Source: an uncultured Gemmatimonadaceae bacterium
GTDB taxonomy: Bacteria > Gemmatimonadota > Gemmatimonadetes > Gemmatimonadales > Gemmatimonadaceae
Assembly: GCA_963829055.1 (NCBI GenBank)
Contig: CAWHHI010000020.1
Location: forward strand, 288,001-352,000
Length of the DNA stretch: 64,000 nt
Reading direction: 5' to 3'
A model generated the notes under the pieces. The model was not told where the DNA came from and ran no database searches. It saw only the letters and a program-made list of their open reading frames with translations. Positions 900 to 64,000 of the stretch are shown in pieces. The number at the start of each line of letters is the position of its first letter. Position 1 is the first letter of the stretch. Position numbers and translations under genes: made by a program.

Positions 900-955
900 G
901 GCAGCAGTTCGTACTAGGCGTTAGGCACATCTCGGCCACTCGAGGAGGGGTTCGT

Positions 956-1427
956 ATGCACCGTATTCTCGTGTGCTTGCTTATCGCAGGCGTCATGACG
1001 ATTCGGCCGGCGCCGATATTCCGCCCAGGCGCCAGCCGCTACGGCGACAGCGCCGCTGCCTTCCATCACGTTGCCGCCTGCGCTCGATCGCGTGCTTCGT
1101 GATTATGAGCGGGCGTGGCGGGCGCGGAATGCGGACTCGCTGGCGGCGCTGTTCACCCAGGACGGGTTCACGCTCTCGTCCAGCCAACCCATGCGACGCG
1201 GGCGCGCCGCCATCCGCGACGGGTACGCGAACAGCGGCGGGCCGCTCGCGCTCCGCGCGGTCGCGTACGCGGCGGACGACACCGTGGGGTACATCATCGG
1301 CGCGTACGCGCGAGAGAGCGGCGATCCGGATATCGGAAAGTTCGTGCTCGCCCTCCGGCGCACGTCCGGAGGGCCGTGGCGGATCGCCGCGGACATGGAC
1401 AATGGCAACGGTCCGCCACGTCGTTAG
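956..1427 (+). CDS. Secreted NTF2-like / DUF4440 protein (one frameshift near 1020)
   Basis: GAGGAGG RBS and ATG 956 with signal-like start; C-terminal frame 1071-1427 has YERAWRARNADSLAALFTQDG ... GKFVLALRR..WRIAADMDN. Confidence 0.75.
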
Positions 1428-1431
1428 GCTG

Positions 1432-2739
1432 TCAGAATTGCGCCGCCTCCGTCGACCCGGCGAGCGCGACCGTCGATGCGATACCGCCGGACACGAGCTG
1501 CGTCACCGCATCGAAGTACCCGGTACCGACCTCGCGCTGGTGGCGCGTCGCGGTGTAGCCTAACGCTTCGGCCGCGAACTCCGCCTCCTGCAGCTCCGCA
1601 TACGCGGCCATGCCGCGCGTCCGATACGACTCGGCCAGCTGGAACATGCCGTAGTTCAGCGAGTGGAAGCCGGCGAGCGTCACGAACTGGAACTTGTAAC
1701 CCATCGCCCCGAGCTCGCGCTGGAATCGCGCGATCGTGCTCGCGTCGAGCTTCTTCTTCCAGTTGAACGACGGCGAGCAGTTGTAGGCGAGCATCTTCCC
1801 CGGGAATTTCTCGTGCACGCTGTCGGCGAACTGACGCGCTTCGTCGAGATCGGGCGTCGATGTCTCGCACCAGAGGAGGTCCGCGTACGGAGCATAGGCA
1901 ACGCCGCGGGCGATCGCGCAGTCGAGCCCACCCGAGATGCGGAAGAAACCTTCCGGCGTTCGCTCGCCCGTGATGAAGGGGCGGTCTCGCTCGTCGACGT
2001 CGCTCGTCAGCAGTCGCGCGCTGTCGGCATCGGTGCGGGCGATGATCACGGTCGGCACGTCGAGCACGTCGGCGGCGAGCCGCGCGGCGACGAGGGTACG
2101 AATGAACTGCCCCGTCGGCAGCAGCACCTTGCCGCCCAGGTGGCCACACTTCTTCTCGGACGAGAGCTGATCCTCGAAGTGCACGCCCGACGCGCCCGCC
2201 TCGATCATCGCCTTCATCAGCTCGAACGCGTTCAGTGGACCGCCGAACCCTGCCTCCGCATCCGCCACGATGGGCGCGAACCAGTAGTGCTCGCCGCGCT
2301 TGCCTTCGGATGCTTCGATCTCATCGGCTCGCATGAGCGCCTGATTGATGCGCCGCACCACGGATGGAACGCTGTTGGCCGGATACAGGCTCTGGTCCGG
2401 GTAGGTCTGTCCCGAGAGGTTCGCGTCGGCGGCGACCTGCCAGCCGCTGAGATAGATGGCCTCGAGTCCGCCGCGGACCTGCTGGACGGCCTGGTTGCCG
2501 GTGAGTGCGCCGAGTGCGTGGACGTAGTCGCGCGTCGTGAGCAGCTCCCAGAGCCGCCGTGCGCCGACCTGCGCCAGCGTATGGTGTACGACGACCGAGC
2601 TGCGCAGGCGCTCGACGTCCTCGGTGGTGTACGGGCGCTGAACGCCGGCCCAGCGCGACTCGGCGCCACCGACTGGCGTGGTGGCGTCAGCGTTAGGCAG
2701 CACCGGGTCGGTCGTCAGGTCGTTGATGATGGTCGCCAT
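1432..2739 (-). CDS. aceA: Isocitrate lyase
   Basis: [10 protein letters not shown] active-site motif, [22 protein letters not shown]; intact 435 aa. Confidence 0.98.
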
Positions 2740-2831
2740 CGCGTTGTCCTCTGGAGTTCGTGTGATTGCCGCGCAATGACGCCGTCATCTGTGACGTCGC
2801 CGGCCGCGTCCGTGGAGTCGGTCGGATCAGG

Positions 2832-4542
2832 TCAGTCGAGCCGGTCGTACGCGACGACCGTGAGGAATTCGCGCAGGTCGTAGTCGAGCGTGAGCGACGA
2901 GAAGATCTCGCACGCGTCGTCGAAGTGGCCGGTCTGGAACGCGTCCTCGCCGACGTCGCGCCGGATGGCGGTCACCTCGTCCTCGATCATGGCGGCCACG
3001 AGGCGCGGGCAGACCTCGCGGCCGTCATCGAGCCGAGCGCCGTGACGAAGCCATTGCCAGAGCTGCGCCCGGGAGATCTCCGCGGTCGCGACGTCTTCCA
3101 TCAGGTTGTACAGCGGGACCGCGCCCGCACCGCCGAGCCACGCGGCGAGATAGCGAATGCCGACGCGGATGTTGAGGCGGAGTCCATCCTCGGTGCGAGG
3201 TCCCGTCGGGATGCCTAACAAGTCTTGCGGCGGTGACGTGGACGTCTTCGCGGCGGACGTGACGCTGGTCGTCGCCGGTCATTCCGGCGGCGAACGCGTC
3301 TCGTGCGACGAGCACGAGCGCCGGGTGCGCGACCCAGGTGCCGTCGTGTCCGTCACCGGCCTCGCGCTGCTTGTCCGCGGCCACCTTCTCGAGTGCCGCG
3401 GCGTTCGCGAGCGCATCATCACGCACGGGGATCTGCGCCGCCATGCCGCCGATGGCGAACGCATCTCGGCGGTGACACGTGCGGACGACGAGCTGCGTGT
3501 AGGCCCGCATGTTCGGCTGCGTCATGGTGACCGCGGCCCGATCCGGGAACACCGCGCCGGGGTCGTGGCGACGCATCTTGATCGAGCTGAAGATGTAGTC
3601 CCAGCGACCGCAGTTGAGCCCCGAGGCATGCTCGCGGAGCTCCCACAGGATCTCGTCCATCTCGAACGCCGCCGGCAGCGTCTCGATGAGCACCGTCGCG
3701 CGGATCGTGCCGTGCGGGATGCCTAACGTGTCCTGGGCGTGGCGGAAGACGGTGTTCCAGAAGCGCGCCTCGCGATGACTCTCGAGCTTGGGCAGGTAGA
3801 AGTACGGGCCCGTTCCGCGCTCGACGAGCGCGTGCGCGTTATGGAAGAAGTAGAGACCGAAATCCACGAGGGCAGCCGGCACGGGCCGGCCGTCGAGCAG
3901 CAGGTGGTGCTCCATGAGGTGCAATCCGCGCGGCCGCACGACGAGCGTCGCGCGCTTCGGGGCGAGCCGGTAGGACTTGCCCGTCACGGGGTCCTCCAAC
4001 GCGATGGTGCCGCGCACGGCGTCGCGCAGGTTGACCTGGCCGTCGATGATGTTCTCCCAGGTCGGCGAGCACGCGTCCTCGAAGTCCGCCATGAACACGT
4101 CGGCGCCGGAGTTGAGCGCGTTGATCATCATCTTGCGATCGACCGGCGCGGTGATCTCGACGACGCGGCGCCGGAGGTCGGTGGGGGCCGGTGCCACCGT
4201 CCATTCGGCGTCGCGGATCGATTGCGTCTCGGGCAGGAAGTCGAGTCGGTCTTCACCGCGCTCGAGGCGTTCTCGCCGGTCGGCGCGGGCCGCCAGGAGC
4301 TCGCGAACCGCAGGTCCGAAGCGGTCCACGAGGTCGGCGACGAACGCCAGCGCTTCCGGCGTGAGCACGACGGCCGACCCGCCCGGCGCCGCTCGGCCAA
4401 CGGGGTGGCGGACGTCGACCCGGCGCGCGGTGGCGGCGTCGGCGCCGCTTGGCTCGGAGCCGCTTGGCGACGATGCCACGGACACCGGATGGCGTGGCCC
4501 GCGCGGGAATTCGGGCTCGAATCGAAGCGGTTGCGCTGTCAT
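2832..4542 (-). CDS. aceB: Malate synthase A (frameshift near 3222)
   Basis: [39 protein letters not shown] and [19 protein letters not shown] across two frames; likely ATG 4542 with GAGGA RBS. Confidence 0.95.
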
Positions 4543-4763: not shown

Positions 4764-4788
4764 TCACAGATCCATCGCGGAGGCGACC

Positions 4789-6228
4789 GTGGCAGACCCC
4801 GTGTTCCTTGGCCGACGCATCCGGTCGCTCCGCGTGCGACTTGGCGTCAGCCAGGCCGACCTCGCGAAGCGACTCGGGATCTCGTCGAGCTACCTCAACC
4901 TCCTGGAGCACGACCGGCGGCCCGTCACCGCTCCGCTCCTGCTCGAGCTGTCCCGCGTCCTCGACGTCGACCTTCGCGTTCTTGCCGGAGGCTCCGCGGA
5001 CGCCGAGCTGGTGGCGACGCTCACCGAGATCTTTGGCGAGCCCCTGTTCGAGGATCATCCGCTGACCGCCGCGGACGTGCGTGCGCTCGTCGCCGCGAGC
5101 CCCGACGTCGCGCGCGCGATCGTCCGCCTTCACGAGGGCTACGCGAGCACACGGGCGTCACTGGAGATGCTCGGTCACCAGCTGCTCGACGACCCCCAGG
5201 AGCTCGGCAACCTCGACCGCGCTCGACTCTCGTCGGAGCAGGTGTCGGACTTCATCCAGCGCCACGGCAACTACTTTCCGACGCTCGAGACCGAGGCGGA
5301 CCGTCTGCTCGCGGACAGCGGTGGCGACGGCGAGGATCTCTTCGGCCGCCTAACGCGGTACCTCGAGCGGACGCACGGGGTCCGCGTGCGCACCGTGACC
5401 GTCGGCGAGATGCGCGGCGCCGTCCGTCGCTTCGATCCCGAGCGCCGCGAGCTCCAGCTTTCCGAGATCCTCCGGCGCGGGTCACGGAACTTCCAGCTCG
5501 CCGTTCAGGCCGCCCTTCTCGGCAGCTCGCGCGCACTCGAGGCGCTGACGGTCGACCCGAAGCTCCCGAGCGACGAGTCGCGCTCGCTCGCACGCGTCGC
5601 ACTGGCCGGCTACCTCGCCGGTGCCGTGCTCATGCCGTACGACGCGTTCCTCCGCGCGGCCGAAGCGGAGCGATACGACATCGAGCTGCTCGGTCACCGC
5701 TTCCGCGTCGGCTGGGAGCAGACCTGTCACCGCCTCACGACGCTCCGACGTCCGGGCGCCGAGGGTGTGCCGTTCTACATGCTGCGCGTGGACATCGCGG
5801 GGAACATCTCCAAGCGCTTCAGCGCGGCAGGCATCCGGTTTCCGCGATTCAGTGGGCTGTGCTCACTGTGGAACGTACATGCGGCGTTCCTGCAGCCTGG
5901 GCGTGTCCGCGTGCAGCTCTCGCGGATGCTCGATGGACACACGGTGCTGGCCGTCGCGCGCACGGTGCAGCGGCATTCGGGCAGCTACAAGGCGCTCGAG
6001 GCGCCATACGCCGTGGGCATCGGCTGCGATTCGTCCCACGCGCGCCGACTCGTCTACTCCGACGGGCTCGACATCGACAATGCGGCGGCGGCGGTGCCGA
6101 TCGGCATCACCTGTCGGCTGTGCGAGCGTGCGGATTGCACCGCGCGCGCCGTGCCGTCGCTCGGAGGCGCGCTCCGGATCGATGAGAACGTACGCGGCGT
6201 GTCGTTCTTCGCGCCGGTGCCTTCATAG
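4789..6228 (+). CDS. ramB: RamB/ScfR (short-chain fatty acyl-CoA) family regulator: XRE HTH + central domain + C-terminal Cys cluster
   Basis: LGISSSYLNLLEHDRRP HTH, EQTCHRLTTLRRPG, RVDIAGNISKRFS, PIGITCRLCERADC; divergent from aceBA. Confidence 0.88.
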   Translation: MADPVFLGRRIRSLRVRLGVSQADLAKRLGISSSYLNLLEHDRRPVTAPLLLELSRVLDVDLRVLAGGSADAELVATLTEIFGEPLFEDHPLTAADVRALVAASPDVARAIVRLHEGYASTRASLEMLGHQLLDDPQELGNLDRARLSSEQVSDFIQRHGNYFPTLETEADRLLADSGGDGEDLFGRLTRYLERTHGVRVRTVTVGEMRGAVRRFDPERRELQLSEILRRGSRNFQLAVQAALLGSSRALEALTVDPKLPSDESRSLARVALAGYLAGAVLMPYDAFLRAAEAERYDIELLGHRFRVGWEQTCHRLTTLRRPGAEGVPFYMLRVDIAGNISKRFSAAGIRFPRFSGLCSLWNVHAAFLQPGRVRVQLSRMLDGHTVLAVARTVQRHSGSYKALEAPYAVGIGCDSSHARRLVYSDGLDIDNAAAAVPIGITCRLCERADCTARAVPSLGGALRIDENVRGVSFFAPVPS

Positions 6229-6635: not shown

Positions 6636-9600
6636 CTAGACTTCGAGCCGATCTCCAGGCCGCGCCGCCACGGCATACAGCGCAGGCATCAGGTAGACGC
6701 TGATCAGCAGCCGCGAGAACAGCCCACCGACGATCACGAGCGCGAACGGCCGCTGCGAGTCCGACCCGACCCCGCTCGACAGCGCGGCCGGCAGCAGGCC
6801 TAACGCGGCGACGAGCGCGGTCATCATGATCGGCCGGAGCCGCAGCAGCGCCGCCTCGCGACGTCGCGTCGGCGATACTCTTCCCCGTCCGCCGCAGCTC
6901 GTTCACGTACGAGATGTAGACGATCGCCGTCTGCACCGACACGCCGAACAGCGCCAGGAACCCGATCCCCGACGACACCGAGAACGGCGTTCCCGTAAGC
7001 TCGAGCGCGAGCAACCCGCCGATCGGCGCCGAGAGCACCACGCCCACGACCGTGATGAACGGGAACTTGAAGTTGTTGTAGAGCGCGAACAGGATCACGA
7101 AGATCAGCGTCAGCGTCACCGGCAGAATGAACTGCAGCTGCGCGCGCGACGCCGTGTACTCCTCGTACTCGCCGCCCCACACGACGCGATAGCCGGCCGG
7201 CATCGGCACCGCCGCGGCCACCTTCCGCTGCGCCTCCTGCACCGCGCCCGCGAGATCTCTGCCCTCGACCGAGTACTGGACTCCGATGAACCGGGAGTTG
7301 TCCTGCCGGTAGATGAACGACGCGCCGTTCGCGAGCTGGATGTCCGCGAGCTCGCGCAGCGGCACGCGCTGCCCGTCCGCCGTCGCGACGAGAATGTTGC
7401 CGATCTGCTCCGGCGTCTCGCGATACTGCGGCTGCGAGCCGAACGACGAGATCGAACAGCCGCTCGCCCTGCGCGACCTGCGTCGCGGCCGCTGCCGCCG
7501 ACCGCGGCCTCGATCAGCCCGTTGATGTCGGCGACGTTGATCCCGTAGCGCGCGATCTTCGCCCGGTCGATGTCGATCGTCAGGCTCGGCTGACCGAGCT
7601 CCTGCACCACCGTCACGTGCTTCACGCCGCGCACCTGGTCGAGCACGCGCTTCACCGCGCGCCCCTTCTGCTCGAGCACCGCGAGGTCGGTGCCGAACAC
7701 CTTCACGTCGAGCGAGCTCTTGAGCCCCGTCTCCGCTTCGTCGACCGCGTCCTCCGCCGGCTGCGTGAAGTTGAACGTGATGCCCGGGAACACCTTGAGC
7801 TTGTCGCCCACCGCCGCGATGAGCTCGGGCCTTCGTCGCGATACGCGCCGTTCCACTCGCTGTACGGCTTGAGCCCGACGTAGAACTCGGCGTTGAAGAA
7901 GCCCGTCGGATCGGTGCCGTCATCGGGACGGCCGTGCTCCGACGCGACGACCGTCACCTCGGGGAACGAGCGCAGGATCTCGCGCACCTGCGGCACGATC
8001 TTCGACGACTCCTCGAACGAGATCGTGTACGGCATCGTCGCCCGCACCCACAGCGCGCCCTCGTCGAGCTTCGGCATGAACTCGGCGCCGATGCGCGGGA
8101 TGAGCAGCATCGAAAGCGCGAACACGGCAGTCGACAGCGCCGATCGTCCACCACGGGCGCGCGAGCGCACGCGTCAGGCCGCGCGCATACTGCGCGCGGA
8201 TCCACTCGTAGACGGGATTCCGCCGCTCGCGCACGCCGCGCTCGCAGCAACCACGCGCACAGCACGGGCAAGCAGCGTCAGCGTGACGATGAGCGCGCCG
8301 ATCAGCGCGAAGATCGTCGTGTCCGCCATCGGCTCGAACAGCTTGCCCGACGGTCCGCGCAGCACGTAGATCGGCAGGAAGCTCGCGATGATCACCGCCA
8401 CCGCGTAGAAGATCGGCCGGTCCACCTCGGCCGCCGCGGCAATGATCGTGTGCACGACGCCGAGCCGTTCCACCTCAGGGTCAGCCAGCCGTCGATAGAT
8501 GTTCTCGACCATGACGACAGCGCCGTCGACGAGAATGCCGAAGTCGATCGCGCCGATGGACAGCAGGTTCGCCGGAATGTCGCGCAGGTCGAGGCAGATG
8601 AACGCGAACAGCAGCGACAGCGGAATCGTCACCGCGACGATGAGCCCGGACCGGAAGTCGTACAGGAAGAAGATGAGGACGATCGACGACGAGCACGATG
8701 CCGCGAAGCAGGTTGTCCTCGACCGTCCGCGTCGTCAGGCGAATGAGGTCGCTGCGATCGTAGAACGGAACGATCTTCACGTCCTTCGGCAGGATCTCGT
8801 TGTTCAGCTCGTCGCGTCTTCTTCTGGATGCCCTTGAGAACGGTCTGCGCCTGCTCGCCCGTGCGCAGCGTGACGACGCCCTCGACGGCGTCGTTCTGAT
8901 TCTGGAAGCCGAACTGGCCGAGTCGCGGCGCCGCGCCGATCACGACCTGCGCCGATGTCCTTCACGAGCACCGGCGTTCCGTCGTGCACGGCGAGGACGA
9001 CGTTACCGATGTCTTCCGTCGTCGCGACGCGGCCGAGGCCGCGCACGTAGTAGAACTGCCCGCCCTCGGAGTAGAAGCCGCCGCCGGCGTTGCCGTTGTT
9101 CGCGCCGAGCGCCGTCGCGACGTCGCGGCACGCTGAGCCCGGCGCCGGCGAGCTTCGCCGGATCGATCAGCACCTGGTACTGCATCGTCTCGCCGCCTAA
9201 CGACTCGAGGTCGGCGACGCCGGGCACGGACTTGTAGCCGCGATCGATCACCCAGTCCTGCAGGATGTGCAGATCCCGCGCGGAACGGTCAGGGCTCTGC
9301 AGCACGTAGCGATAGACCAGCCCCGACGGCGAGAACAGCGGCGACACGCCCGCCGACACGCCCTCCGGCAGCTCGACGTCGGGCACGCGCTCGAACACGC
9401 GCTGGCGCGCGAAGTAGTTGTCGGTGCCGTCCACGAACGTGAGCGTGACGTCGGACAGCCCGTACAGCGAGACCGAGCGCATCACCCGAAGTCCGGGCAG
9501 ACCGTTCATCTGCAGTCTCGACGGGCGCCGTGATCAGCCGCTCGACCTCCTCCGCGGCGTGACCCGGCCACTGCGTGATGATCTCCACCATCGGCGGCGA

Positions 9601-9858: not shown

Positions 9859-11102
9859 TGGCTCTGCGCGAACTGCACGAACAGCGCGCCCTCGGAGATG
9901 ATGCGTTCGCCCGCCTTGACTCCGGCCTTCACCTCGTACTGGTCGCCGACGCGAGAGCCGAGCGTGATCTGGCGCCTCGCGAACGAGGTGCCCTTCGCGC
10001 TCGTCACTTCCACGAACACGAACGGCAGGTTGTCGTCGTCGCGCAGCACCGACGTCACCGGGATGAGCAGTCCGCTCCGTCCGCGCGACGCGTGAATCGC
10101 GACCTGTACGTACATGTCCTTCTTGAGCAGTCGCCGCGTGTTCGGCACCACGACGCGAACCGGCGTCGCCTTCGTGTTCGGATCCACGAGCGCGGCGATG
10201 TACGCCACGCGTCCGACGAACGGCGTCGGCGATGCGGTCGTCGTCACCTCCGCACGGTCGCCCACCTGCACGGCCGAGAGGTCCGACTCGAACACGCTCG
10301 TCTGTACCCACATCGTCGCGAGGTTCGCGATCGTGTACGTCGGCGTGGACCCCGCCTGCAGCAGCTGCCCCGGGTTGATGAGCCGCTCGACGACGGTACC
10401 GTCGATCGGCGCGCGAATCGCCGCCTGCATCGTCGGCACGTCCTTGCCGTCGCGGAGCGCCGCGATCGACGCGTCGTCCACGCCTAACGCGCGGAGCTGC
10501 TGCAGCGCGGCGTCACGGTCGGCCCCGGCCGCCACAGCGTCCGTCTGCGCCTGCTCGAGGTCGCGCTTGGCGATCGCGTCGTTCTTCCAGAGCTGCTCGT
10601 CGAGATCCGCGACGCGCTTGGCCTGCACCCACGCGGCCTGCGCTTTCCGGAAGTCGGCGACCGTGGACGCAAAGTCCGGCGAGGACACGAGCGCCAACGC
10701 CTGCCCCGCGCGCACCGACGCGCCCGGCTCCGCCAGAATGCGGGTGACCGGCCCGGAGATCGGCGCGAGCACCTGCGTGGACACGTCGGCGTCGAACTGC
10801 GCCGTGCCCGTCGCCTGAATGGTCGGCCGGAAGTCCGACTGCGCCACCGGCTCGATGTGGAGCCGCGCCAGCTGCTCGGCCGGAACGATCACGGTGCCGG
10901 CGCTCGCGCCGTTCCCCGTATCCGCCGGCGACGCTGCGTTCGCCGCCGGTGTCCCGGCCGCGCTGCGCGCCGAATCGGACTCGGCGTTCGATTGCGAGCA
11001 GGCACCTAACGCGAAACTCGTCACCGCGATCGTCGTCCACGCAACCGCCTGTCGGCCAACCGAGCGCGAACGCGCGGGTGTGATTGCCTGATTACCGCGC
11101 AT
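9855..11102 (-). CDS. RND efflux periplasmic adaptor (MFP, CzcB/CusB-like)
   Basis: Lipoprotein-like ALGAC, APISGPVTRI, IRAPIDGTVVER, VDPNTKAT; lies between TolC and RND genes. Confidence 0.92.
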   Translation of the reverse strand: MRGNQAITPARSRSVGRQAVAWTTIAVTSFALGACSQSNAESDSARSAAGTPAANAASPADTGNGASAGTVIVPAEQLARLHIEPVAQSDFRPTIQATGTAQFDADVSTQVLAPISGPVTRILAEPGASVRAGQALALVSSPDFASTVADFRKAQAAWVQAKRVADLDEQLWKNDAIAKRDLEQAQTDAVAAGADRDAALQQLRALGVDDASIAALRDGKDVPTMQAAIRAPIDGTVVERLINPGQLLQAGSTPTYTIANLATMWVQTSVFESDLSAVQVGDRAEVTTTASPTPFVGRVAYIAALVDPNTKATPVRVVVPNTRRLLKKDMYVQVAIHASRGRSGLLIPVTSVLRDDDNLPFVFVEVTSAKGTSFARRQITLGSRVGDQYEVKAGVKAGERIISEGALFVQFAQSQ

Positions 11103-12434: not shown

Positions 12435-12570
12435 GCCGATTGCCCGTTGACCGGATGAGCCACGTGACCGGAACGGTCGCGTGGATGAGCTCCGTACGGC
12501 GTCGGCCTAACGAGTCGATGGCCTGCGGGCGGCGCTACCGGATAGGCAGCGCTCACGTTCCCGCGGCGGT

Positions 12571-12983: not shown

Positions 12984-13149
12984 CGAGTGAGTGTTACGAA
13001 ACTACGACCCCGTTACGCGAGAGACCAGCACGGCGTTGGTTTCGGGGGAGAACGGCCCCGGCGAAGGCTCACCGGGGCTACCTTGCCCGTGCCTAACTCG
13101 CCGGGCCGGGCTGCAGGCACCAACCAGCGCGCAGCGCTATTTTGGCTTC

Positions 13150-14930
13150 ATGCCGACATACAAGGCTCCGCTCGCCGATATCCGGTTCGTTCTCGACGAC
13201 CTCCTCGATGTCGGGCAACTTACCGCGCTGCCCGGCTACGCCGACGCGACTCCCGACCTGCTCGCGACCGTGCTCGAGGAAGCCGCCAAGCTGTGCGAGG
13301 AAGTGCTCGCCCCGCTCAACCAGTCCGGCGACGCCGAAGGGTGTCACTACGAGAACGGGGTCGTCCGTACTCCGCGTGGTTTCCGCGAGGGGTACGACGC
13401 CTACCGCGAGGGCGGGTGGCCGGCCATGGTCGCGCCGCCAGAGTTCGGGGGACAGGGGTTGCCCCACATTGCGGGCGTGGTGCTCGACGAGATGCTCTGC
13501 TCGGCGAACCTCTCGTTCAGCATGTATCCCCTGCTCGCGCACGGCAGCGTCGGCGCGCTCGAGCGCTGGGGCGACGAGGAGCTCAAGCGTCGATTTCTGC
13601 CGAGGCTCGTGGACGGCTCGTGGACCGGCACCATGTGCCTCACGGAGCCGCACGCCGGCACCGACCTCGGATTGATTCGGACGCGCGCCGTGCCCGCGGG
13701 CGACGGCGCGTACCTCGTGACCGGCACGAAGATCTTCATCTCGGCCGGGGAGCACGATCTCACGGACAACATCGTCCACCTCGTGCTCGCGCGACTCCCC
13801 GACGCGCCGCCGGGCACCAAGGGCATCAGCCTGTTCGTGGTGCCAAAGCGCCTGCCGACGGACGAGGGACTGCGCCGGATCGCCGAACGGCGTCGTCTGC
13901 GGGTCGATCGAGCACAAGATGGGGATCAAGGCGAACGCGACGTGCGTCATGAACTTCGAGAACGCGCGTGGCTGGCTCGTCGGCGACCCGCACAAGGGCA
14001 TGCGCGCCATGTTCACGATGATGAACGGCGCGCGACTCGGCGTCGGCATGCAGGGGCTCGGCCTGGCCGAGGTGAGCTACCAGAACGCCGTGGCGTACAC
14101 CAGGGAGCGCCTGCAGGGCCGGTCCGCGCACGGCTCGCCAGCACCTAACGCCGATGCCGACCCGATCATCGTGCACCCGGACGTGCGGCGCATGTTGATG
14201 ACGATGAAGGCGTACATCGAGGGCATGCGCGCACTGGCGTACTGGGTCGGCATGCTGATCGACGTCGAGGAGCGTCACGCCGATACCGCCACGCGCGAGG
14301 AAGCGACCGACCTCGTCGCGCTCATGACGCCGGTCATCAAGGCGTTCTGCACCGACGTCGGCTTCGAGATCACGAACCTCGCGCTCCAGTGCTTCGGCGG
14401 TCACGGCTACATCCGCGAGTACGGCATGGAGCAGTTCGTGCGCGACGCGCGGATCGCGCAGATCTACGAAGGCACGAATGGCGTGCAGGCGATGGACCTG
14501 CTCGGCCGCAAAGTGCCTGACGGCAACGGCCGCCTCGTGCAGCGGTTCGTCGCGCTGGCCGAGCGAGATCTGGCCGAGGCGGCGAAAGCAGCCTGCGCTC
14601 CGCGCGATGGCGGAGCGCGTGCGCGACGCGCTGCACGCGCTGCTCCAGGTTACCGGAACGGTGATGGCGCGCGCGGCCAGGGATCCGGACGAGATCGGCG
14701 CCGCCGCGACCGACTACCTGCGCATGTTCGGCCTGGTCGCGACCGGATGGATGTGGGTGCGCATGGCGGCGACGGCGATCGCGAAGGCCGGCGAGGGCGC
14801 GACCTCACTGCCCAAGGTCGACACGGCGAACTTCTACGTCATGAAGCTGCTGCCGCAGACGCACGCGCTCGCCGCGCAGATCGAGGCCGGCGCGCCGCCC
14901 GTCATGGCACTCGACGCGTCGGCATTCTAG
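13150..14930 (+). CDS. Acyl-CoA dehydrogenase (two frameshifts)
   Basis: MPTYKAPLADIRFVL, TGTMCLTEPHAGTDLG, GTKIFISAGEHDLTDNIVHLVLAR, QCFGGHGYIREYGMEQFVRDARIAQIYEGTNGVQ. Confidence 0.95.
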
Positions 14931-48095: not shown

Positions 48096-48126
48096 CGCTC
48101 CGGCTCCGCGTGTGGTTGGTGTGTCG

Positions 48127-52639: not shown

Positions 52640-53063
52640 CACTCCAGGAATAGCTGTTGTCACGGCTGACTGGCAGCGGACAGATCGATTGGGAATCCAT
52701 AATATCGTGAACGGCCTCCTGGACTGCGGGGGCCGTTTGCGTGCGTCCGCCCTCATGCCGACCGTGTTTTCGGGTCGCGCACGAACAACGCCGATAGCGG
52801 TTCCCACGTGTTTCCCGGGTCGCCATGTGGACAAGTAGGTCGCTCGGTTGGATATTCGAGTCGAGCCGCCGTCAAGAATGAAATGAGTGGGACGAGCCGT
52901 ACACAGCCATTCCCGTTGCCCCGGGCCTGCCGAACGGCCCCCGCTGTCTACCGGTTCACCTCGGAGCTATTCTTGACGCGCGCGCCTAACGCGCATTGTT
53001 CCGCAGGGTATTTCTGAGCGAGCCGCTGCTGGTTTCGCCCGCGAAAGCATTCGAGGCAAATAG

Positions 53064-53469: not shown

Positions 53470-55906
53470 GTGTCAAATTCTTCGATCGTCACCGAGCTGT
53501 CGGCCGCGGTGCGCGCGCTGCGACGAGCGCCGCTGGTTTCCGGTTCCGCAATCCTGTGCGTCGCCCTCGGCATCGGGGCAACCGCCGCGATCTCGAGCGC
53601 GATCAGTCGCGCACTGCTGCAGCCGCTGCCGTTCCGAAGTCCCGAGCGACTGGTCACCGTGTACCGCACGACGCCGCACTTCGACACCGGGCCGTTCTCG
53701 CCGGCGAACTACCTCGACCTGGCGCGCGAAACGCCGTCAGCTCGAAGCGCTCGCCGCCATCACGCCGACGACGAGCCTGTTGCAGCTGACCGACGAGGCG
53801 ACACAGGTCACCGTGAACCGCGTGACGGGCAACGTGTTCCCCATGCTCGGTCTGCGTGCGCTACGCGGGCGCTTGCTCAACGCCGCTGATGATCAGGCCA
53901 ATGCGCCACTCGCTCGCCGTGATCGGCGAGGAGCTGTGGCGGGAGCGTTTCGGCGGCGATCCCGCGCTCGTCGGGAAGCCAATTCGTCTCGACGGGCAGG
54001 CGTACACCGTCGTCGGGCATCGCGCCTCGCGAGTTCGGCATTCCGCACGGCTCGCAGGTGATTCGCTCGCAGGTGTGGGTCCCCATGCAGTTCTCGCCGA
54101 ACGAGCTGGCACAGCGCGGCAGCAACTACCTGTATGCGTTAGGCAGGCTGGCTCCCGGCGCGACCCTCCAGTCGGCCCACGCGGAGCTGGTCCGGCTGTT
54201 CGACGGCATCGTCGCCGCGAACCCGGAGTTGCGAGGCGAGCAGGTGCGCGCGCTCTCGCTCGTTGGTGAAGGCGTGCGGACGGTGCGCAAACCGCTGATG
54301 CTGCTGTTCGGCGCCGTGTGCATGGTGCTGCTCATCGCCGCCACGAACGTCGCCAGCCTGCTGCTCGCGCGATCCGTGCATCGGCGGCGTGAGCTCGCCA
54401 TCCGTTCGGCGTTAGGCGGCAACCGGCACCAGCTCATGCGACCGGTGCTGAGCGAGAGTCTCGTGATGACGGCTATCGGGCTGCTCCTCGGGCTGGGGTT
54501 GGCGTGGGGCGGCGTCCGCACCATCGGCTCGCTCGCCGCCGCTCGTCTCCCTCAGCTCGCGGGGCTCTCGGTGGACTGTCCGCGTGATCGCGTTCGCCAT
54601 CGCGCTCGCGGTGCTGGTGGCGCTCGTGTGCGGCGGCCTGCCGGCGTGGCGAAGTGCGGCCGTCGATCCGCAGGACGCGCTTCGCGACGGGCGCGGCGGC
54701 GGGACGAGCCGGGCTCACCATCGCGTGCTCGGGTCGCTCGTCGTGGCCGAAGTCGCGCTGTCGCTCATGCTGCTGATCGGCGCGGGGCTCGTCCTCAAAG
54801 GGTTCTCGCAGCTGCTCTCGAAAGACCCCGGGTTCGACCCGAACCCGATCCTCACGCTGCAGGCGACCGATCTCGCCCGACCGCTATCCCGACGGCAACA
54901 CCGTAGAGCGCTTCCTCGAGCCGGCGCTGCAGAAGATTCGCGAGATCCCCGGCGTCGACGCGGCGGCATCGATCTCCCTCATCCCGTACGTCAACTGGGG
55001 CTGGAACTTCAACATCCGCTACGAGGGGCAGCCGGGCACCGACCGGACGCGTCTCCCGATGACGGAGAATCGCGTTGCGACCCCCGAGTTCTTCCAGGTC
55101 ACGAAGCAGCGCCTCATCGCCGGCCGACTCCTCGGCCCCCAGGACGACGGGCGACCGGAATCGCCGGCGGTCGTGGTCGTGAATCAGGCGCTCGTGAAGC
55201 GCGATTTCCCCGGTGGCGATCCGATCGGCAAGCGCTTCTACACGGGCGACACCACGTTCGCGACGATTGTGGGCGTCGTCAGCGATATCAGGAATTTCGG
55301 ACCGATCGAGGACCCGCACGGCGAGGTGTATCGGCCGTTCCGCCAAGCGGGCCAGGGATCTTCGAGCTTCGCCATCATGGTTCGAACGCGCCGCGGCAAC
55401 CCCGCGGACCTCACCGCGGCGGTTCGCGCCGCCGTGCGATCCGTCGATCAGCAGGTCGCGATCACCGATGTGAAGACGATGCCTGAGGTCATGGCCCTCA
55501 GCACGGGAAGCGCGCGCTTCTACCTGATCCTGCTGGCGAGCCTTCGCGTGCGTGGCGCTCGTCCTGGCGGTGTCGGGCATCTATGGAGTGCTGAGCTACG
55601 CCGTGGCCCAGCGGACGCGCGAGTTCGGAATCCGCAGCGCCCTCGGCAGCACACCGGCGACAACGCTCGCGCTCGTCACGCGGGAAGGGCTACGCCTCAT
55701 CGGCATTGGAGTGGCGCTCGGCCTCGCCGGCAGCATGGCCGCGACTCGACTGCTCAGCGCCATGCTCTACGGCGTCAGCCCACTCGACCGAGCCACATGG
55801 GCCGCGACTACGGCCGCGCTCATGGTCGTCGGGCTGATTGGCCACGCTCCTACCCGCATTTCGGGCAACGCGCGCGGACCCGTTGCTCGCGATCAGGGCG
55901 GACTGA
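53470..55906 (+). CDS. ADOP-type ABC permease lacking the N-terminal prefix (frameshifts)
   Basis: AVRALRRAP..VALGIGATAAI, LLIAATNVASLLLAR, GIYGVLSYAVAQRTREFGIRSALG. Confidence 0.9.
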
Positions 55907-56917: not shown

Positions 56918-58381
56918 TCAGGGCACCAGAACAACCGTATACGGCCGCTCACCCACCGGGATCGTCGCAGTCACGCGTCGTTGTGCCGTCGAGATGACGC
57001 TCACGCTGTTGGATCGACCGTTCGCCACGTACAGCGTCGCGCCGTCCGGCGTGAGCGCCACACCCCACGGGCGCTGCCCAACGGGGATGGACGCGACGAC
57101 GGACCGACCAGTGACGTCGACGACGCTGACCTGATTCGCGCGACCGTTCGCGATGTAGGCGAAGCGACCATCCGGCGAGATGGCGATGCCCGTCGGCTTC
57201 GTCGTCCGGTCACCGATCGTGATCGTGGCCGTCACCGAGTCCCGCCGCACGTCGAAGACGTGCACGAGGCCACCGTCCTCCGTACTCACGAGCCCCCACT
57301 GCCCGTTAGGCGCGAACACGATGAATCTCGGACGCGCACCGACGTGCATGACGCCGACACGCTGGCCACTCGACGCATCGAGCGCGGTCACCGTCGAGTC
57401 GGTCTCCCCGGTGATGTAGACCTTCGTCCCACGCGGCCCAACCAGAATCCCTTCCGGCTCGCGCCCGACGGCGGCGCGGAACCGCATTCGATGTCCCGTG
57501 ACCGCGACCGCCGTGGCCGAGTCGAGCGCTTCGTTGGAGACGTAGATCGTGCGACCGTCCGGGCTGACCGAGACCTGCTCGGGATCGGCGCCGACCGGGA
57601 TCGTGTCGACGACGCGACGTGCGGCGATATCGATGACACCAACTGCGTTGTCCTTGCCTAGTGCGACGTACGCACGACGCCCATCCGGGGCGACGGCAAG
57701 TCCGCGTGGCCGGGCCCCAACGTCGAAGGTCGCGACGACGGCGTTGCCCTCGATGACGCTCACGGTGTTCCCGCCCTCGTTGCTCACGAGGCCACGCTGC
57801 GCACGAGCCGTGGAGGGCGCGGTGCCTAACGCCACCAAGCCCAGCACGCCCACCGCGACGGACGCGCGCCGCGTCGGGATCCGCCGCCTGCGCTCTCGAC
57901 GCATCACCCACCGCTCGGCCAACACTGCGTCCAGTCCCCACGTGCGTCCAGCGCCGGCGAAGAGGAACGCGAGCATCATGGCCAGCAGCATCACGTGGAA
58001 CCCTTGTTGCCCTGAGCTCATGTGCTGGACCGCGAGCCCGTATGTGATGACCTGCAGTGCCCCGAATACCGCGCCAACTTCGGTCAGGAGCCCGAACGTG
58101 AGGGACAGCCCTACGGCGACTTCACCGAGCGCCGTGAGGTGCGCGTACGCGTGGTTAGGCACGACGGTGCCGAGCAGGAACGCCTTGTATGCCGGGAACG
58201 GATTGTCGGCGGCATAGCGTGCGATCAGCTTCGGCATGGTGGCGATCCACCGCGGCGACGCCACCGGTATGGGAATGAAACCCGCGAGCAGCGCGATCGA
58301 GATCTTCGTGAGGATACTCTTGAGGAACCAGAGTCCGACGGTGATGCGCAGCAGCGCCAGCCAGCGATCCGGGTGGCGCAT
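56918..58381 (-). CDS. DoxX/DoxD-like membrane domain + YVTN beta-propeller (single ORF, possibly two genes)
   Basis: LALLRITVGLWF..GEVAVGLSLTFGL..AGAGRTWGLD, followed by repeats such as IPVGQRPWGVALTPDGATLYVAN. Confidence 0.8.
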   Translation of the reverse strand: MRHPDRWLALLRITVGLWFLKSILTKISIALLAGFIPIPVASPRWIATMPKLIARYAADNPFPAYKAFLLGTVVPNHAYAHLTALGEVAVGLSLTFGLLTEVGAVFGALQVITYGLAVQHMSSGQQGFHVMLLAMMLAFLFAGAGRTWGLDAVLAERWVMRRERRRRIPTRRASVAVGVLGLVALGTAPSTARAQRGLVSNEGGNTVSVIEGNAVVATFDVGARPRGLAVAPDGRRAYVALGKDNAVGVIDIAARRVVDTIPVGADPEQVSVSPDGRTIYVSNEALDSATAVAVTGHRMRFRAAVGREPEGILVGPRGTKVYITGETDSTVTALDASSGQRVGVMHVGARPRFIVFAPNGQWGLVSTEDGGLVHVFDVRRDSVTATITIGDRTTKPTGIAISPDGRFAYIANGRANQVSVVDVTGRSVVASIPVGQRPWGVALTPDGATLYVANGRSNSVSVISTAQRRVTATIPVGERPYTVVLVP

Positions 58382-58936: not shown

Positions 58937-58982
58937 GTGCCTGAACTCGATAGTGCCTGAACCCGATAGCGCCTAACGCCGA

Positions 58983-59034: not shown

Positions 59035-60454
59035 TTAGAAGGCGACCACGCCCTCCAGCATGAATCCGTCGAACTTGGCGCCGTGGCGGATGTCGGTGAT
59101 CGGGAAGTTGCTGTACGTCTGTTTCACCCACTCGCCCTTCATGAGCAGGATCGGGGTGATGAACCACCCGCCGGCGAGGGCCGCGCGCTCGGCGCTGGCG
59201 TCCGACGTGTACCCTTTGAACCGGCCCTCGACCGTGTTGTAGCGGGCGCCGACGTACGCCTTCTCGTTCTTGAGGAACCGGTAGATCACGTCCCCGGCGT
59301 ACTGGTCGAACGACCGCTTGCCCGTCTCCGTCGTCTGCGCGCCGCTCGCCTGCTCGGCCACGCCGAAGAACTCCAGCCCGCGGTACTTCACGAACGGGTT
59401 GATCTGGTAGCTGTGCACCGCGCTGCCGAACGCCGGGTCGAACATGCCCGACATCTTCTGCGCCGCCTCGGTCGCCGCCGTATTCTCGACCACGAGGTAG
59501 TAGCGCGAACCGGCACGATCACCGGCGAACAGCGTCTGGTTGGCCGAGCGCGTCTGGCTGAACAGCGATCCCGTTAGGCGGGTCCGCAGGTTGGGCGTCA
59601 GCTGGCGGTCGACGCCGACCTTGCCGTAGAACGCGGGCGACCGCTTCGCCGGCGCCGACACCTGGCCGCGGATCTCGCCGCCCGTGATGCCGACCATGCC
59701 CAGCAGACCCTTGCCGCGGAGGTACGCCTCGCCGCCGACTTCGGTCGTGAACGGATCGAGGATCAGGTTCCCGACGAACGCGTTGTGCATGGCGTTGCCG
59801 TTGTCGGTGCGACGGAAGTGCGAGTCGCCGTAGTTGATCTCGAAGTGCCCGAACTTGAGCGAGACGTAGTCCATCATGCGTCTCGAGCGCCTTCACCTTG
59901 ATCGGCGAGCCGTCGATGAGCAGGAAGCCGTCCTTGACCCACGTCTCGTTGTGGTGGCGCGAGGACAGGTACGAGGTCAGCGCGACGCGGATCCCCGGCG
60001 CGATCTGCGCGTTCAGGTACAGGTTGGCCGTGGCGTTGTTGAAGCCGTTGCCGATCGACATGAGCTGGTTGGCGTCGACCTTCGTGATCGGATCGATCTT
60101 CGGGGCGGCGCCCGTCTCATGCGAGAGCCCCTGGAACTGCTGCGTGAAGGCGGCGCCCCAGCTGAGCTGGAAGCCCGTGAACGGCGTCGCGTCGCTCTTC
60201 GGCGCCTCGAAGGTGTTGATCCCGCGCTGATCGATCGGGTGGATGTGCTGAATCACCGTCTTGGGCACCAGGCTCGCGACGGTCGTCGCGGCCGCGGCGG
60301 AAGAGTCGGGGGTCGCCGGCTTCGCCTCGGACTTCGTGGTGGTCGCCGGGCGGCTGATGGTGTCGGCGGACGCAGTGTTCGGGTTCGCCTGCCCCATGGC
60401 TGGAACAGCAGCGAAGAGCGTAGCGCTCAATGCGAGGACAGGGGTGAGTCTCAT
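59035..60454 (-). CDS. Outer-membrane beta-barrel / porin-like hypothetical protein (frameshift near 59880)
   Basis: Signal peptide, FNNATANLYLNAQ..YLSSRHHNETWVKDG, amphipathic strands, C-terminal Phe (GVVAF). Confidence 0.75.
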
Positions 60455-61282: not shown

Positions 61283-61786
61283 CTACGGCGTGACCTCGCC
61301 CGTGGCGTCGCCCAGGGAATGGCGCGCGGGCATCGCCGTTCGCGCCTCGCGTCCGGTCAACTCGTCCGGCCGTACCTTGAGGACAACGGTACGCTCGGGT
61401 GTGGGATCCCCGTCACCTAACGCGCTCGGTACGAGCGTACGCAGGTACGCGACCGCCTGCCGGTACGACTCGCGTTCGACCGGAGGTCCGTCGTCACGAA
61501 GCACGTAGACGGTGCCGTGCGCGACGACACTCCGCCAGTCGAAAAGCCCGTCGACCTCGTCCACCTCCAGCGCAATCCACGGGGAGTGGGCGAGCGCCGC
61601 GAGCTTGGAACCGGGTGCAGTCCGCATGTAGATCGCCCCATCCGGATACACGTAATGGATAGGCTCGATGTCCACGCGCCCGTGGAACGTGTAGGCAATC
61701 CGCCCGACGTTATGGCGAGCGAGCAGCTGCTCGACCTCGCGCGGATCGAGCGTACGGAATGTCGGTGTGGGATTTCCCGTCGGCAT
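61283..61786 (-). CDS. Pyridoxamine 5'-phosphate oxidase-like flavin-binding protein
   Basis: LLARHNVGRIA..IEPIHY..RTAPGSKL..LEVDEVDGLFDWRSVVAHG..LTGR. Confidence 0.85.
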   Translation of the reverse strand: MPTGNPTPTFRTLDPREVEQLLARHNVGRIAYTFHGRVDIEPIHYVYPDGAIYMRTAPGSKLAALAHSPWIALEVDEVDGLFDWRSVVAHGTVYVLRDDGPPVERESYRQAVAYLRTLVPSALGDGDPTPERTVVLKVRPDELTGREARTAMPARHSLGDATGEVTP

Positions 61787-61853
61787 ACGGCGGCCTCGAG
61801 ATGGCGTGTGATCAGTGCACAAGCGTGTGGCGCTGGGCGTTAGGCAGCAGCAA

Positions 61854-62621
61854 TCACGGCGTGAGCCCCGGCAGGTGCGCCAGGTGCATGGGAGAGCGCG
61901 TGTACGATTCGAGCGTCAATACCGTCGATCCGATCACCGGCATGGACGTCTCGATGCGGACCGGGATGCGGCACATGTCATCCGTCAGGTGCAGCCGGAT
62001 GACGCCATCGCCATGGAACCGACCAGCGTCTCTCACGTGCATCTCGACGATGATCGTGGAGAACGTGCCGGCCTCGGTGCGAATGGTGTCGCGGCCGACG
62101 ACGCGCACTTCGACCGGGTTGCGCTCCCGATCGTAATGGCGCGCGACGCGATAGACGGTATCAGGAACGAGCGGCAGGGTCCGTATGAAGTAGATGAACG
62201 AGAGCTCGTCCAGCGGCGCATTCGTCGGGCTCTCGCCACCGTCGCCACGCGTCGTCTGCCAGCGCTGCGATTCGGGAAACAGCTCGACCTGTTCGTCGCT
62301 GCCCGTGAACGCGCGACGCTCCCGCTTCCTGAACCGCAGCGCCGACATCCGTGCGGGATCGAGCCACGAGTCCGCGCGGTCGAGCGCCTTGATGGGCCCG
62401 ATCCGGGCGCGCACCTCGGACTTGAGCAGATAGGTCGCGACGCCGCGCACGTCTTCCGGCCCCTGGATGGACATCGATCCCTGGCCGACGTGCTTGCTTC
62501 CGACGGTCACGCCGTAGTTCAGCCGCTCGCCGATGCTGAACGGCAACTCGACGGTCGTCTGTGCTCGCATCGCGAGCGGCACCACGAGCGCGAACCCTAC
62601 GCGCAACCCCATTCTGGCCAT
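61854..62621 (-). CDS. DUF3108 domain protein
   Basis: LPFSIGERLNY, LDELSFIYFIR, IRTEAGTFST, LTDDMCRIPVRI. Confidence 0.8.
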   Translation of the reverse strand: MARMGLRVGFALVVPLAMRAQTTVELPFSIGERLNYGVTVGSKHVGQGSMSIQGPEDVRGVATYLLKSEVRARIGPIKALDRADSWLDPARMSALRFRKRERRAFTGSDEQVELFPESQRWQTTRGDGGESPTNAPLDELSFIYFIRTLPLVPDTVYRVARHYDRERNPVEVRVVGRDTIRTEAGTFSTIIVEMHVRDAGRFHGDGVIRLHLTDDMCRIPVRIETSMPVIGSTVLTLESYTRSPMHLAHLPGLTP

Positions 62622-62928
62622 GCATCCTCGACCGTGCAGCGATCGTTAGGCGGTAGAACGAAGCTCCCGGTGAGTCCAGGGGGTCCTCGTCTACCGAACG
62701 ATCGGCGAAGCGAAGAGGCGAGGTCGTCAGGCATCGGTGGGAACGCGTGTCCGGCGATCGGCACGCTCGTGTGAGGGAATCCCCTGCACCGGCGGACGCA
62801 CGGGTAGTCGCCCCAGAAATGCGAGAGCGACGCCCGACATTCGTTAGGGTAACGCCGGACAGAACGGCACCCGGACGCCGCGATACTCTATGCGCGTGAC
62901 GACGAACCACTGCGTTCCGGAGGCCACA

Positions 62929-63861
62929 ATGAGTTCCACCGCGGCAAGATTGGCCCTTGGCCAGACCGCGCCCGAGCGCGGGCAGGGCATGTTGACGTTG
63001 CTCCGCCCCGAGATCCTGCTCGCTACCGACGGAACGCCGGCCGCACTCGCGGCCACTCGGGTGACCGCCGCGCTGGCGGCACGCTCGGGACTGCGACCGC
63101 ACGCGTTCACGGTGCTGCCGCCGCCCGTGCCACTGGATCCCTTGCTCACGACGATGTCGGCGACCTTCGATCCCCAGCTGGGCGCGGAACAGGAAATCGC
63201 ACGCCAGCTGAGGTCGTGTTCACCGAGCGGCGACACCTGGACGCGAGAAACGGTGATCGGATCGCCGGCCGATGAGATCGCGCGCGCAGCACACGCGCGA
63301 AACGCCGACCTCATCGTCATGGGCCTCCGTGCGCACGCGTTCCTCGACCGCGTCTTCCGCGACGAGACAGCGCTCACGGTGATGCGCCGCGCGGGCGTTC
63401 CAGTGCTCGCGGTCACCCCACTGCTCCGACAGCTGCCTCGGCGCATCGTCGTCGGTATCGATTTCAGTCGCGCGAGCATCGTCGCCGCGCGGGCCGCAAT
63501 GGGGTTACTCGACGAAGGCGGCGAGCTGCTCCTGACCTACGTGGAACCGCCCATCGAGACGCGACCCGAGGAAGCAAAAGCCTACGGCGGGATCTACGCG
63601 GAAGGACTCTCCGGCGCATTCGCTCGGCTCCGACAGGAGCTCGTGTCCCGCTCTGACGTCACTATCGACACCATCGTGCTTCGGGGAGCGGCACCGTCGG
63701 CGCTGCTGTCGCTCGCGACTCGCTCCGACGCCGACCTGATCGCCGTCGGCAGCCAGCGCCACAGCATCGCACGTCGCGCCTTCGTGGGCGGAGTGACGAC
63801 CGCGCTCGCACGAGCCGCCACGCGATCGTTGTTGGTCATTCCCCCCGAACGCCACGCTTGA
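62929..63861 (+). CDS. Universal stress protein (tandem USP domains)
   Basis: ILLATDGT..GSPADEI..ADLIVMG; RIVVGIDFS..DLIAVGS..FVGGVT..LLVIP. Confidence 0.92.
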   Translation: MSSTAARLALGQTAPERGQGMLTLLRPEILLATDGTPAALAATRVTAALAARSGLRPHAFTVLPPPVPLDPLLTTMSATFDPQLGAEQEIARQLRSCSPSGDTWTRETVIGSPADEIARAAHARNADLIVMGLRAHAFLDRVFRDETALTVMRRAGVPVLAVTPLLRQLPRRIVVGIDFSRASIVAARAAMGLLDEGGELLLTYVEPPIETRPEEAKAYGGIYAEGLSGAFARLRQELVSRSDVTIDTIVLRGAAPSALLSLATRSDADLIAVGSQRHSIARRAFVGGVTTALARAATRSLLVIPPERHA

Positions 63862-64000
63862 CGACACCGTCCGGGGTTCCCTGCGGTCGCGCTTCAACGG
63901 ATTCGAGACGGCCTAACGCGACTCGAGACTACCCGACGGGTGCCGGAGCGGCCTCGTAGGGGAGCGAGAACGAGAACAGACTGCCTCGGCCGGGCTGGCT

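Follow-up and report, generated by a model that had tools for sequence, protein, structure and literature searches.

What is an eight-letter word doing in a bacterial genome where it recurs about once per kilobase, on either strand? The question is raised by a window of 64,000 nucleotides (C20:288001-352000) from G000, an uncultured Gemmatimonadaceae genome of 7,784,024 bases in 20 contigs with ~67% G+C, in which an earlier note, made from the letters alone, had picked out the heptamer CCTAACG as a candidate recognition signal. The full word is GCCTAACG. Our analysis suggests that it is a candidate tag of the DNA uptake sequence (DUS) type, spread by drive at the level of the DNA; this is a tentative reading, to which we give somewhat less than an even chance.

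The hexamer CCTAAC/GTTAGG occurs at 60 sites in the window, 31 on the plus and 29 on the minus strand, compared with 5.33 expected from dinucleotide shuffles and a maximum of 10 in any of them. Every position claimed in the earlier note was recovered, with the same strand split, and 56 of the 60 sites do extend to CCTAACG and the majority, 44, to complete GCCTAACG. Its rough expectation of ~7 heptamers was somewhat high; the shuffles give 2.43 (maximum 6, with 0 of 100 reaching 56), so the excess is larger than had been claimed. The description of the motif as non-palindromic, strand-unbiased, evenly scattered and a real signal at the DNA level was likewise borne out. Across G000 there are 7103 copies of CCTAAC, 6391 of CCTAACG (3154 plus, 3237 minus; 0.82 per kb) and 5004 of GCCTAACG (0.64 per kb), with a word density per contig of 0.64-1.09 per kb and no contig without the word. 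Markov models predict 102 copies of GCCTAACG at order 2 and 257 at order 3, corresponding to 49-fold and 19-fold excesses, and under these models the word has the top z-score among all 8-mers of the genome. Orders 2 and 3 were used in place of a maximal-order ranking, which cannot see the word because its excess sits in its own sub-words.

Aligned on the CTAAC core, the sites have G at position 1 in 75% of cases and at position 8 in 87%, and single-letter neighbours of the word at positions 2, 3 and 7 are very rare. The outer flanks are nearly uninformative, and their alignment reveals no similarity between copies. Because the flanks carry so little information and share no similarity, GCCTAACG is a bare eight-letter word and not a repeat element. 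Repetitive extragenic palindromes (REP), miniature inverted-repeat transposable elements (MITE) and other dispersed elements were ruled out by these unconserved flanks and by the location of most copies in coding DNA.

The distribution of copies over reading frames locates the excess at the DNA level. The frame of each copy was inferred on both sides from codon log-odds trained on 252 long open reading frames (ORFs); of 6389 copies, the two sides agreed confidently on the frame in 2286, and 4103 were weak, one-sided or two-framed. The framed copies fall into sense Pro-Asn (671), sense Leu-Thr (389), antisense Leu-Gly (953) and antisense Val-Arg (262), and the two frames in which the word makes a stop hold 7 and 4, together 11 of 2286; sense sites number 1067 and antisense sites 1219. 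The codons that the word imposes (CCT, CTA, TTA and AGG) each account for 1-6% of their amino acid in G000. Sites of the form CC[C/T]AACG have T in 11 of 53 cases if T makes a stop, and in 2275 of 2438 otherwise. Selection acts on the letters of the word. The codon-aware test proposed in the earlier note leads to the same place: when synonymous codons were exchanged inside each called gene, so that neither its protein nor its codon pool changed, 10 shuffles gave 326 +/- 21 copies against 3892 in the called genes, a 12-fold enrichment that persists over a codon pool already inflated by the word itself. The gene caller was crude (6408 genes, 70.5% of the genome), and its figures for the DNA outside genes are unreliable. 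The excess is neither codon-level nor protein-level.

These frames also bear on whether the word could be an artefact of systematic basecalling or assembly errors, or could simply follow from codon or peptide usage, an explanation whose probability we regard as negligible. What speaks for it is the assembly: G000 combines 20 contigs with 85.9% completeness and some split genes, which suggests a long-read metagenome-assembled genome (MAG) with indel errors. Basecallers are blind to reading frames, and the avoidance of stop frames therefore argues against such an artefact, as does selection on the letters; the 12-fold excess over codon-aware shuffles argues against a by-product of codons or peptides. 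The word is also present in other assemblies, whose lack of it had been proposed as grounds for discarding the signal. Independent metagenome contigs (L001, L002, L003, L081, L083 and L009) carry it at identical sites and at ~1 per kb, with 3 words in 4.3 kb of L001, 11 in 10.3 kb of L003, 9 in 11.7 kb of L009, 11 in 10.5 kb of L081 and 6 in 8.6 kb of L083; in the remaining ~2.06 Mb of fetched loci there are 27 in all. Over 4318 bases, L001 matches window positions 2468-6721 at 96.5% identity and has sites in common with them. By their names and fragmentation, these contigs of relatives look like short-read assemblies. Six further species of the genus, in 260-1170 contigs each, contain 2501-5112 copies. 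Among the split genes of G000, a chorismate synthase lies in two overlapping ORFs (L201:1577-2260 with 2229-2795), and a PilB-type ATPase has an in-frame TGA (G000:C12:492578-493339).

Comparison between species shows both retention and turnover. In an alignment of 20 kb of the window with six species of the genus (76-79% nucleotide identity), 52 of the 76 copies covered were intact, against ~19% (15-21%) of background 7-mers, and where a copy is missing the relative has a one- or two-letter neighbour. The plus-strand copy at 3721..3728, antisense in a malate synthase gene, illustrates how a copy may arise. Its Leu codon is CTG in the most distant contigs L009 and L083, CTA in L081 and TTA in the window and in L001-L003, and the series CTG->CTA->TTA reads as two silent steps that would lead off the preferred codon and towards the word. 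The distant lineages L009 and L083 have copies of their own at other places. New copies arise via point changes of several substitution types, with no insertion. That copies are retained while others keep being gained through different kinds of substitution points to a force with a direction, one that recognises the word as a whole.

The copies have no preferred direction. Of 6371 pairs of neighbouring copies, 3293 point the same way, autocorrelation does not exceed 0.034, and copy orientation correlates with GC skew at -0.17 (137 bins of 50 kb). Orientation is also mixed in samples of five further enriched genomes, for example 38 plus and 36 minus in G119 and 18 plus and 11 minus in G086. The strand-bias test suggested by the earlier note thus detected no polarity at any scale in G000. 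Apparent one-strand runs in G119, G061, G161 and G086, taken for a polarity like that of the FtsK-orienting polar sequences (KOPS), were mere listing order, the fetched DNA being mixed. That GCCTAACG is a polar word guiding RecBCD/AddAB in the manner of Chi, or FtsK in the manner of KOPS, is scarcely credible. It is an over-represented 8-mer, as are Chi and KOPS or architecture-imparting sequences, and an FtsK with a gamma domain is present in G000 (the C16 copy matches the FtsK query). It differs from them in having no replication-linked strand polarity, in G000 or in four other genera. RecC was found in 0 of 5 genomes, and word-rich G022 and G062 yielded neither RecC nor the AddAB-type nuclease domain PDDEXK_1, which is present in word-poor G120.

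Spacing, a second property that had been recommended for testing, is more regular than chance, and close pairs are avoided. With a mean gap of 1201 bp, gaps of at most 200 bp make up 6.5% where an exponential distribution predicts 15.3%, and gaps of at most 50 bp make up 1.0% where 4.1% is expected. The copies are over-dispersed and avoid one another at short range. Inverted pairs within 60 bp number 28 among 6371 neighbour pairs, with 2 palindromic loci.

In G000, three word-free stretches of 30-50 kb, all at contig ends (C6:5441-55038, C6:591809-623330 and C11:1-44055; loci L200-L207), carry core genes and no mobile ones. They include second copies of the single-copy core genes FtsK, chorismate synthase (AroC), FolD, leucyl aminopeptidase (PepA) and DAHP synthase, with 47-58% amino-acid identity to the copies elsewhere in G000. 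These ends are probably foreign DNA joined in assembly or binning, chimeric or mis-binned, and the word thus marks 'self'. Prophage or an integrative and conjugative element (ICE) was rejected as an account of these islands, their core genes being duplicated elsewhere at ~50% identity; HK97 capsid and TerL ATPase, sought as a prophage test of foreign DNA, had no match in G000. Shorter word-free stretches also occur inside contigs, namely G000:C4:804933-820718 and six more of 9-13 kb. The largest of these internal stretches, C4:804933-820718, has 63.3% G+C and metabolic genes, and may be recently acquired DNA.

The range of the word was surveyed in 151 Gemmatimonadaceae genomes of 77 genera, including four flagged as unpublished (G021, G047, G048 and G146) that enter the totals only, with enrichment defined as a count at least twice that of the reversed control word. 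By a tally read from the table, ~46 of the 151 genomes, about a third of the family, are enriched, and the majority of the remaining genomes fall far below the count of the control word. Peaks are reached in G022 (6360 copies in 5.1 Mb), G053 (4469 in 7.5 Mb) and G062 (3896 in 4.0 Mb). Density differences within genera exceed tenfold. In genus g54, G062 with its 3896 copies and G162 with 4141 stand against G120 with 66, and this is the sharpest contrast for finding a reader gene; in genus g45, the 4469 copies of G053 compare with 895 in G112. The closest loci with a name belong to Gemmatimonadota and Gemmatimonadaceae MAGs. Among 20 relatives, enrichment is confined to the genus and G010, and G010 has an additional variant, GCCAAACG, with 925 copies against a control count of 110, the sole such genome of the 151. 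The signal had been called lineage-specific, which is too narrow: it is not confined to one lineage and is patchy over the family. Small samples (65-100 kb) of word-poor G007, G008, G009 and G012 contained no other hyper-abundant 8-mer; as a positive control, 100 kb of G000 gave z = 66. Runs of eight T/A number 284 in a 400-kb sample of G010 (L161-L180), 440 times the expectation.

A drive of this kind could in principle come from DNA repair, with an orphan methylase marking the word and a mismatch endonuclease converting near-matches, as in very-short-patch (VSP) repair. Biased repair can enrich words, conversion of the methylase/VSP type has been proposed for CCWGG-related words in E. coli and discussed for HIP1 (highly iterated palindrome 1), and the rarity of single-letter neighbours at positions 2, 3 and 7 would suit it. 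We consider it very unlikely, and the methylation-linked suggestion of the earlier note is weakened accordingly by gene content. In the seven genomes of the genus (G000-G006, 77-92% complete), C5 methylase (PF00145), Vsr and N6_N4 methylase (PF01555) each scored 0 of 7, and PF02384 (N6_Mtase) was strong in G001 only, absent in G000 and otherwise weak (E ~1e-4), in large proteins common to word-poor relatives; other methylase families, such as the D12 and Eco57I types, were not searched. Several substitution types converge on the word, and known VSP effects are small. As an observation in its own right, the genus is almost bare of DNA methyltransferases in the PF00145, PF01555 and PF02384 searches; neighbouring genera have up to 14 DNA methyltransferase matches, and word-poor G012 carries a C5 methyltransferase and Vsr side by side. 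HIP1 of cyanobacteria is a highly iterated palindromic octamer, conserved beyond neutral expectation and served by cognate methyltransferases. GCCTAACG resembles it as an iterated octamer of similar density with conservation beyond neutral, and differs in being asymmetric and in the lack of PF00145 and PF01555 in its genus.

Of the three suggestions made in the earlier note, self-DNA uptake is the one that fits best. In its favour are the density of the word, its unpolarised placing, the spacing that avoids close pairs and the exclusion from stop frames, together with copies that are both conserved and turned over between species, the lack of the word in foreign DNA, a variant one letter away in a single genus and the set of competence genes. 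In the mechanism we propose, a component of the uptake or transformation apparatus would prefer double-stranded DNA carrying the word, and word-bearing fragments of relatives would be imported and recombined more often. Near-matches that mutate to the word would then spread and existing copies would be kept, a form of molecular drive. Such a process could saturate the genome at ~1/kb, on either strand and in every non-stop frame, and would leave the word absent from foreign DNA. G000 encodes ComEC, DprA, a secretin and pilins, and a ComEA-type HHH_3 frame adjoins PilB/PilT-type ATPases; this machinery is compatible with uptake and does not discriminate.

Several observations weigh against an uptake tag. 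Competence and pilus genes are found equally in word-poor relatives (ComEC and HHH_3 in 21 of 21 each; secretin, pilins, DprA and T2SSE in 5 of 5 each, word-poor relatives included) and, being universal, are uninformative for tracking the word. No reader protein was identified among the genes examined. The word is shorter than known DUS and uptake signal sequences (USS), and its inverted pairs are not enriched in G000, unlike those of DUS genomes. The frame analysis left 4103 of 6389 sites unframed, and the gene caller was crude, with 70.5% of the genome as coding. Our literature search found no paper linking uptake sequences or natural transformation to this phylum, and for the word itself it returned primers only, with no report of the word. 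Finally, every statistical feature would also be expected from selection for binding by a chromosomal protein.

That last point defines the main rival to an uptake tag, in which the word is the binding site of a chromosomal DNA-binding protein, for example of a nucleoid organiser, or is a 'self' marker for defence or repair, and is kept by host selection. We regard this as possible without thinking it probable. It shares the lack of polarity, the conservation of 52 of 76 copies and the absence from foreign DNA, and competence genes do not track the word, so that there is no specific tie to uptake. No candidate protein was found, however, and density differences of more than tenfold within genera would be unusual for a structural chromosome function. 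The avoidance of close pairs is expected where a benefit accrues per fragment, and is not obviously expected of a binding array.

To our knowledge, sequence-specific uptake tags have been established for two families only, both proteobacterial. The DUS of Neisseriaceae are read by the minor pilin ComP. The USS of Pasteurellaceae has a short core at ~1/kb, unpolarised, more even than random and tolerated in coding frames, and it has AT-rich flanking segments. On our analysis, the statistics of GCCTAACG agree with this class on almost all points that could be tested, terminator pairs being the exception. Like the USS, it is a short core at ~1/kb, unpolarised, over-evenly spaced and tolerated in coding frames, and unlike the USS its flanks carry little information. 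For the DUS, the available text of PMC3630211 gives ~1900 copies per 2.2-2.3 Mb, describes inverted pairs acting as terminators as frequent in all DUS genomes, and reports DUS shared by related genera, single-letter dialects and two dialects in one genome; that of PMC7371117 presents DUS as useful markers of foreign DNA. GCCTAACG is likewise its genome's most abundant word, at ~1/kb on both strands, in and outside genes and with the stop frame barred. Related genera share it, G010 has GCCAAACG as a second dialect, and it marks foreign DNA by its absence. It departs from the DUS in its 8 letters against 10-12 (the USS is given as '9 bp' in the accessible part of PMC1626085) and in showing no excess of inverted pairs or terminators. 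Further differences are the more than tenfold density range within genera, the many genera of the family without the word, the different phylum and the lack of an identified ComP counterpart.

The earlier note knew of no matching motif, which stands for Chi, KOPS, HIP1 and the known DUS and USS but not for integrons. GTTAGGC may have been the original consensus of the integron core site. In the available portions of PMC3053210 and PMC12901181, the attC consensus has RYYYAAC as inverse core (R'') and GTTRRRY as core (R'); GCCTAAC fits the first and its complement GTTAGGC the second, letter for letter. Word-poor G015 and G013 have few copies, which form one-strand clusters with a spacing of 500-650 bp, and these clusters are integron cassette arrays. 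There, an imperfect palindrome of ~100 nt runs from each GCCTAACG to a closing GTTAGGC and folds into an attC hairpin, and the word including its following G is identical to the R'' end of attC in these arrays. The arrays lie in L262-L263 (G015:C95:1-24000), L264 (G013:C3:1-8000), G015:C80, G015:C43 and G013:C26, and 20 kb of cassette array contained no ORF of at least 400 aa. Integrase genes or fragments stand beside two of them (G015:C80:6537-7148 and G013:C26:2268-3218), on the 3' side and not divergent from the arrays.

This identity raises the question of whether the word is an isolated R box read by the integron integrase or a related tyrosine recombinase, and spread via landing sites, decoys or cassette genesis. 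An integrase over the curated cut-off is common, with 88 of 151 family genomes including G000, whose match at C20:208041-208958 (~80 kb before the window) scores 265.7 against a cut-off of 265 bits. Its presence is untied to the word, however, at 28 of 46 word-rich and 60 of 105 other genomes (tally read from tables), and six word-rich genomes (G004, G095, G143, G061, G119 and G105) have Xer-level matches only. The integrase does not explain the word, because its presence does not track it, because genome-wide copies are single and have neither attC partner nor hairpin, because copies are gained by point substitution in conserved genes with no insertion, and because GCCAAACG of G010 breaks RYYYAAC. 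In the accessible text of a preprint (bioRxiv 10.1101/2022.09.11.507474), genomic insertion sites of IntI1 need only GWT. The identity may also be chance, given the many known motifs open to matching. We therefore judge an integrase-read R box improbable. As for likeness to attC itself, both consensus boxes are fitted and the R'' end of related arrays is identical; the copies differ in being single, without the 57-141 bp imperfect palindrome and extrahelical bases, in lying inside conserved genes and in being integrase-independent. Eleven same-strand copies next to the G000 integrase were considered as attC sites and rejected, as they lie in ordinary coding DNA with no attC array recognised.

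The attC identity may be chance, or the specificity of a reader may coincide with the cassette tag. In Vibrio, chromosomal integrons receive cassettes through natural transformation, according to the available text of PMC12614218. Conceivably, uptake tag and integron form one system, in which the uptake apparatus would prefer the R box borne by the attC of every local cassette (GCCTAACG, with GTTAGGC as the other arm), although we think such a union rather unlikely. If it were true, competent cells would fish integron cassettes as well as kin DNA from soil DNA, and the single copies that housekeeping genes hold in their thousands would have arisen as a by-product of uptake bias via homologous recombination. 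Sequence recognition would then couple transformation to cassette capture.

If GCCTAACG is an uptake tag, it would be a third such system, in an abundant and barely cultivated soil phylum, and self-recognising transformation would be widespread. It would also offer a handle on gene flow in soil. The patchiness of the word within genera makes its reader findable by comparative genomics, an approach not known to have succeeded for the USS. Since the word equals the integron R box, a connection between transformation and cassette capture becomes open to test. As a practical marker, the word flags three probably chimeric contig ends in this assembly. If the reader is not uptake machinery, the word marks another genome-wide DNA-reading system.

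Within the window, sites were located by motif scan and are given as 8-mer spans, with alignments to relatives' contigs or to species of the genus. In the first part of the window, the plus-strand copy of GCCTAACG at 1558..1565 is antisense in a gene, encoding Leu-Gly with TTA, and is kept in L003 and one letter off in L081. The minus-strand copy at 2691..2698 is sense in a gene (Pro-Asn) and occurs only in the window and L001, with near-matches in relatives. A plus-strand GCCTAACA variant at 3213..3220, antisense in the malate synthase gene, is shared by 5 of 5 aligned close relatives, and the plus-strand copy at 5348..5355, sense for Leu-Thr with CTA, by 5 of 5 aligned sequences. Two further sites are sense for Pro-Asn, a plus-strand ACCTAACG variant at 14143..14150 and a minus-strand copy of GCCTAACG at 23033..23040.

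Conservation varies from site to site between 40 and 55 kb. On the plus strand, the 7-mer is kept in 4 of 4 aligned species at 40524..40531 and in 5 of 5 at 41242..41249, the latter a ACCTAACG variant. Plus-strand copies of GCCTAACG are kept in 5 of 6 aligned species at 42154..42161, in 6 of 6 at 42790..42797, in 4 of 6 at 45647..45654, in 3 of 3 at 49961..49968 and in 4 of 6 at 47259..47266, where the two most distant species have CCGAACG. On the minus strand, ACCTAACG variants are kept in 3 of 6 at 43483..43490 and in 4 of 4 at 48125..48132. Minus-strand copies of GCCTAACG are kept in 3 of 6 at 46151..46158 (sense Pro-Asn, in a gene read from its translation as a MacB/FtsX-type permease), in 3 of 6 at 51154..51161, in 2 of 6 at 54137..54144 and in 6 of 6 at 54410..54417; the copy at 52193..52200 is kept in 0 of 6 and is new in this species.

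The other plus-strand copies of GCCTAACG lie at 6798..6805, 9195..9202, 10482..10489, 12505..12512, 16077..16084, 21137..21144, 33766..33773, 35840..35847, 52984..52991, 57824..57831, 58971..58978 and 63911..63918. Those on the minus strand lie at 919..926, 1422..1429, 22016..22023, 26257..26264, 26440..26447, 28636..28643, 28976..28983, 32036..32043, 35093..35100, 37482..37489, 44072..44079, 45157..45164, 57304..57311, 59572..59579, 61838..61845 and 62644..62651. Variant sites comprise ACCTAACG on the plus strand at 11004..11011, 29942..29949, 33218..33225 and 61415..61422, CCCTAACG at 17091..17098 (minus), 37690..37697 (plus) and 62842..62849 (minus), and TCCTAACG at 32267..32274 (plus). Three further variants retain the hexamer only, namely GCCTAACT at 13091..13098 (plus), GCCTAACA at 19012..19019 (minus) and GCCTAACC at 58153..58160 (minus).

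Two other repeated sequences were noticed in G000. A second over-represented word family, around TCGGAATGACA, has ~700 copies, 30-fold over order 3, and is probably part of another dispersed repeat. A ~345-bp dispersed element is present twice in the window, at 58595-58945 and 48715-49042 in mutually inverted orientation, and contains no copy of GCCTAACG; a search of window positions 48000-60000 against Rfam gave no match for it. With terminal inverted repeats, a central hairpin and 67 copies of at least 250 bp in G000 at a mean identity of 81%, this element looks MITE-like.

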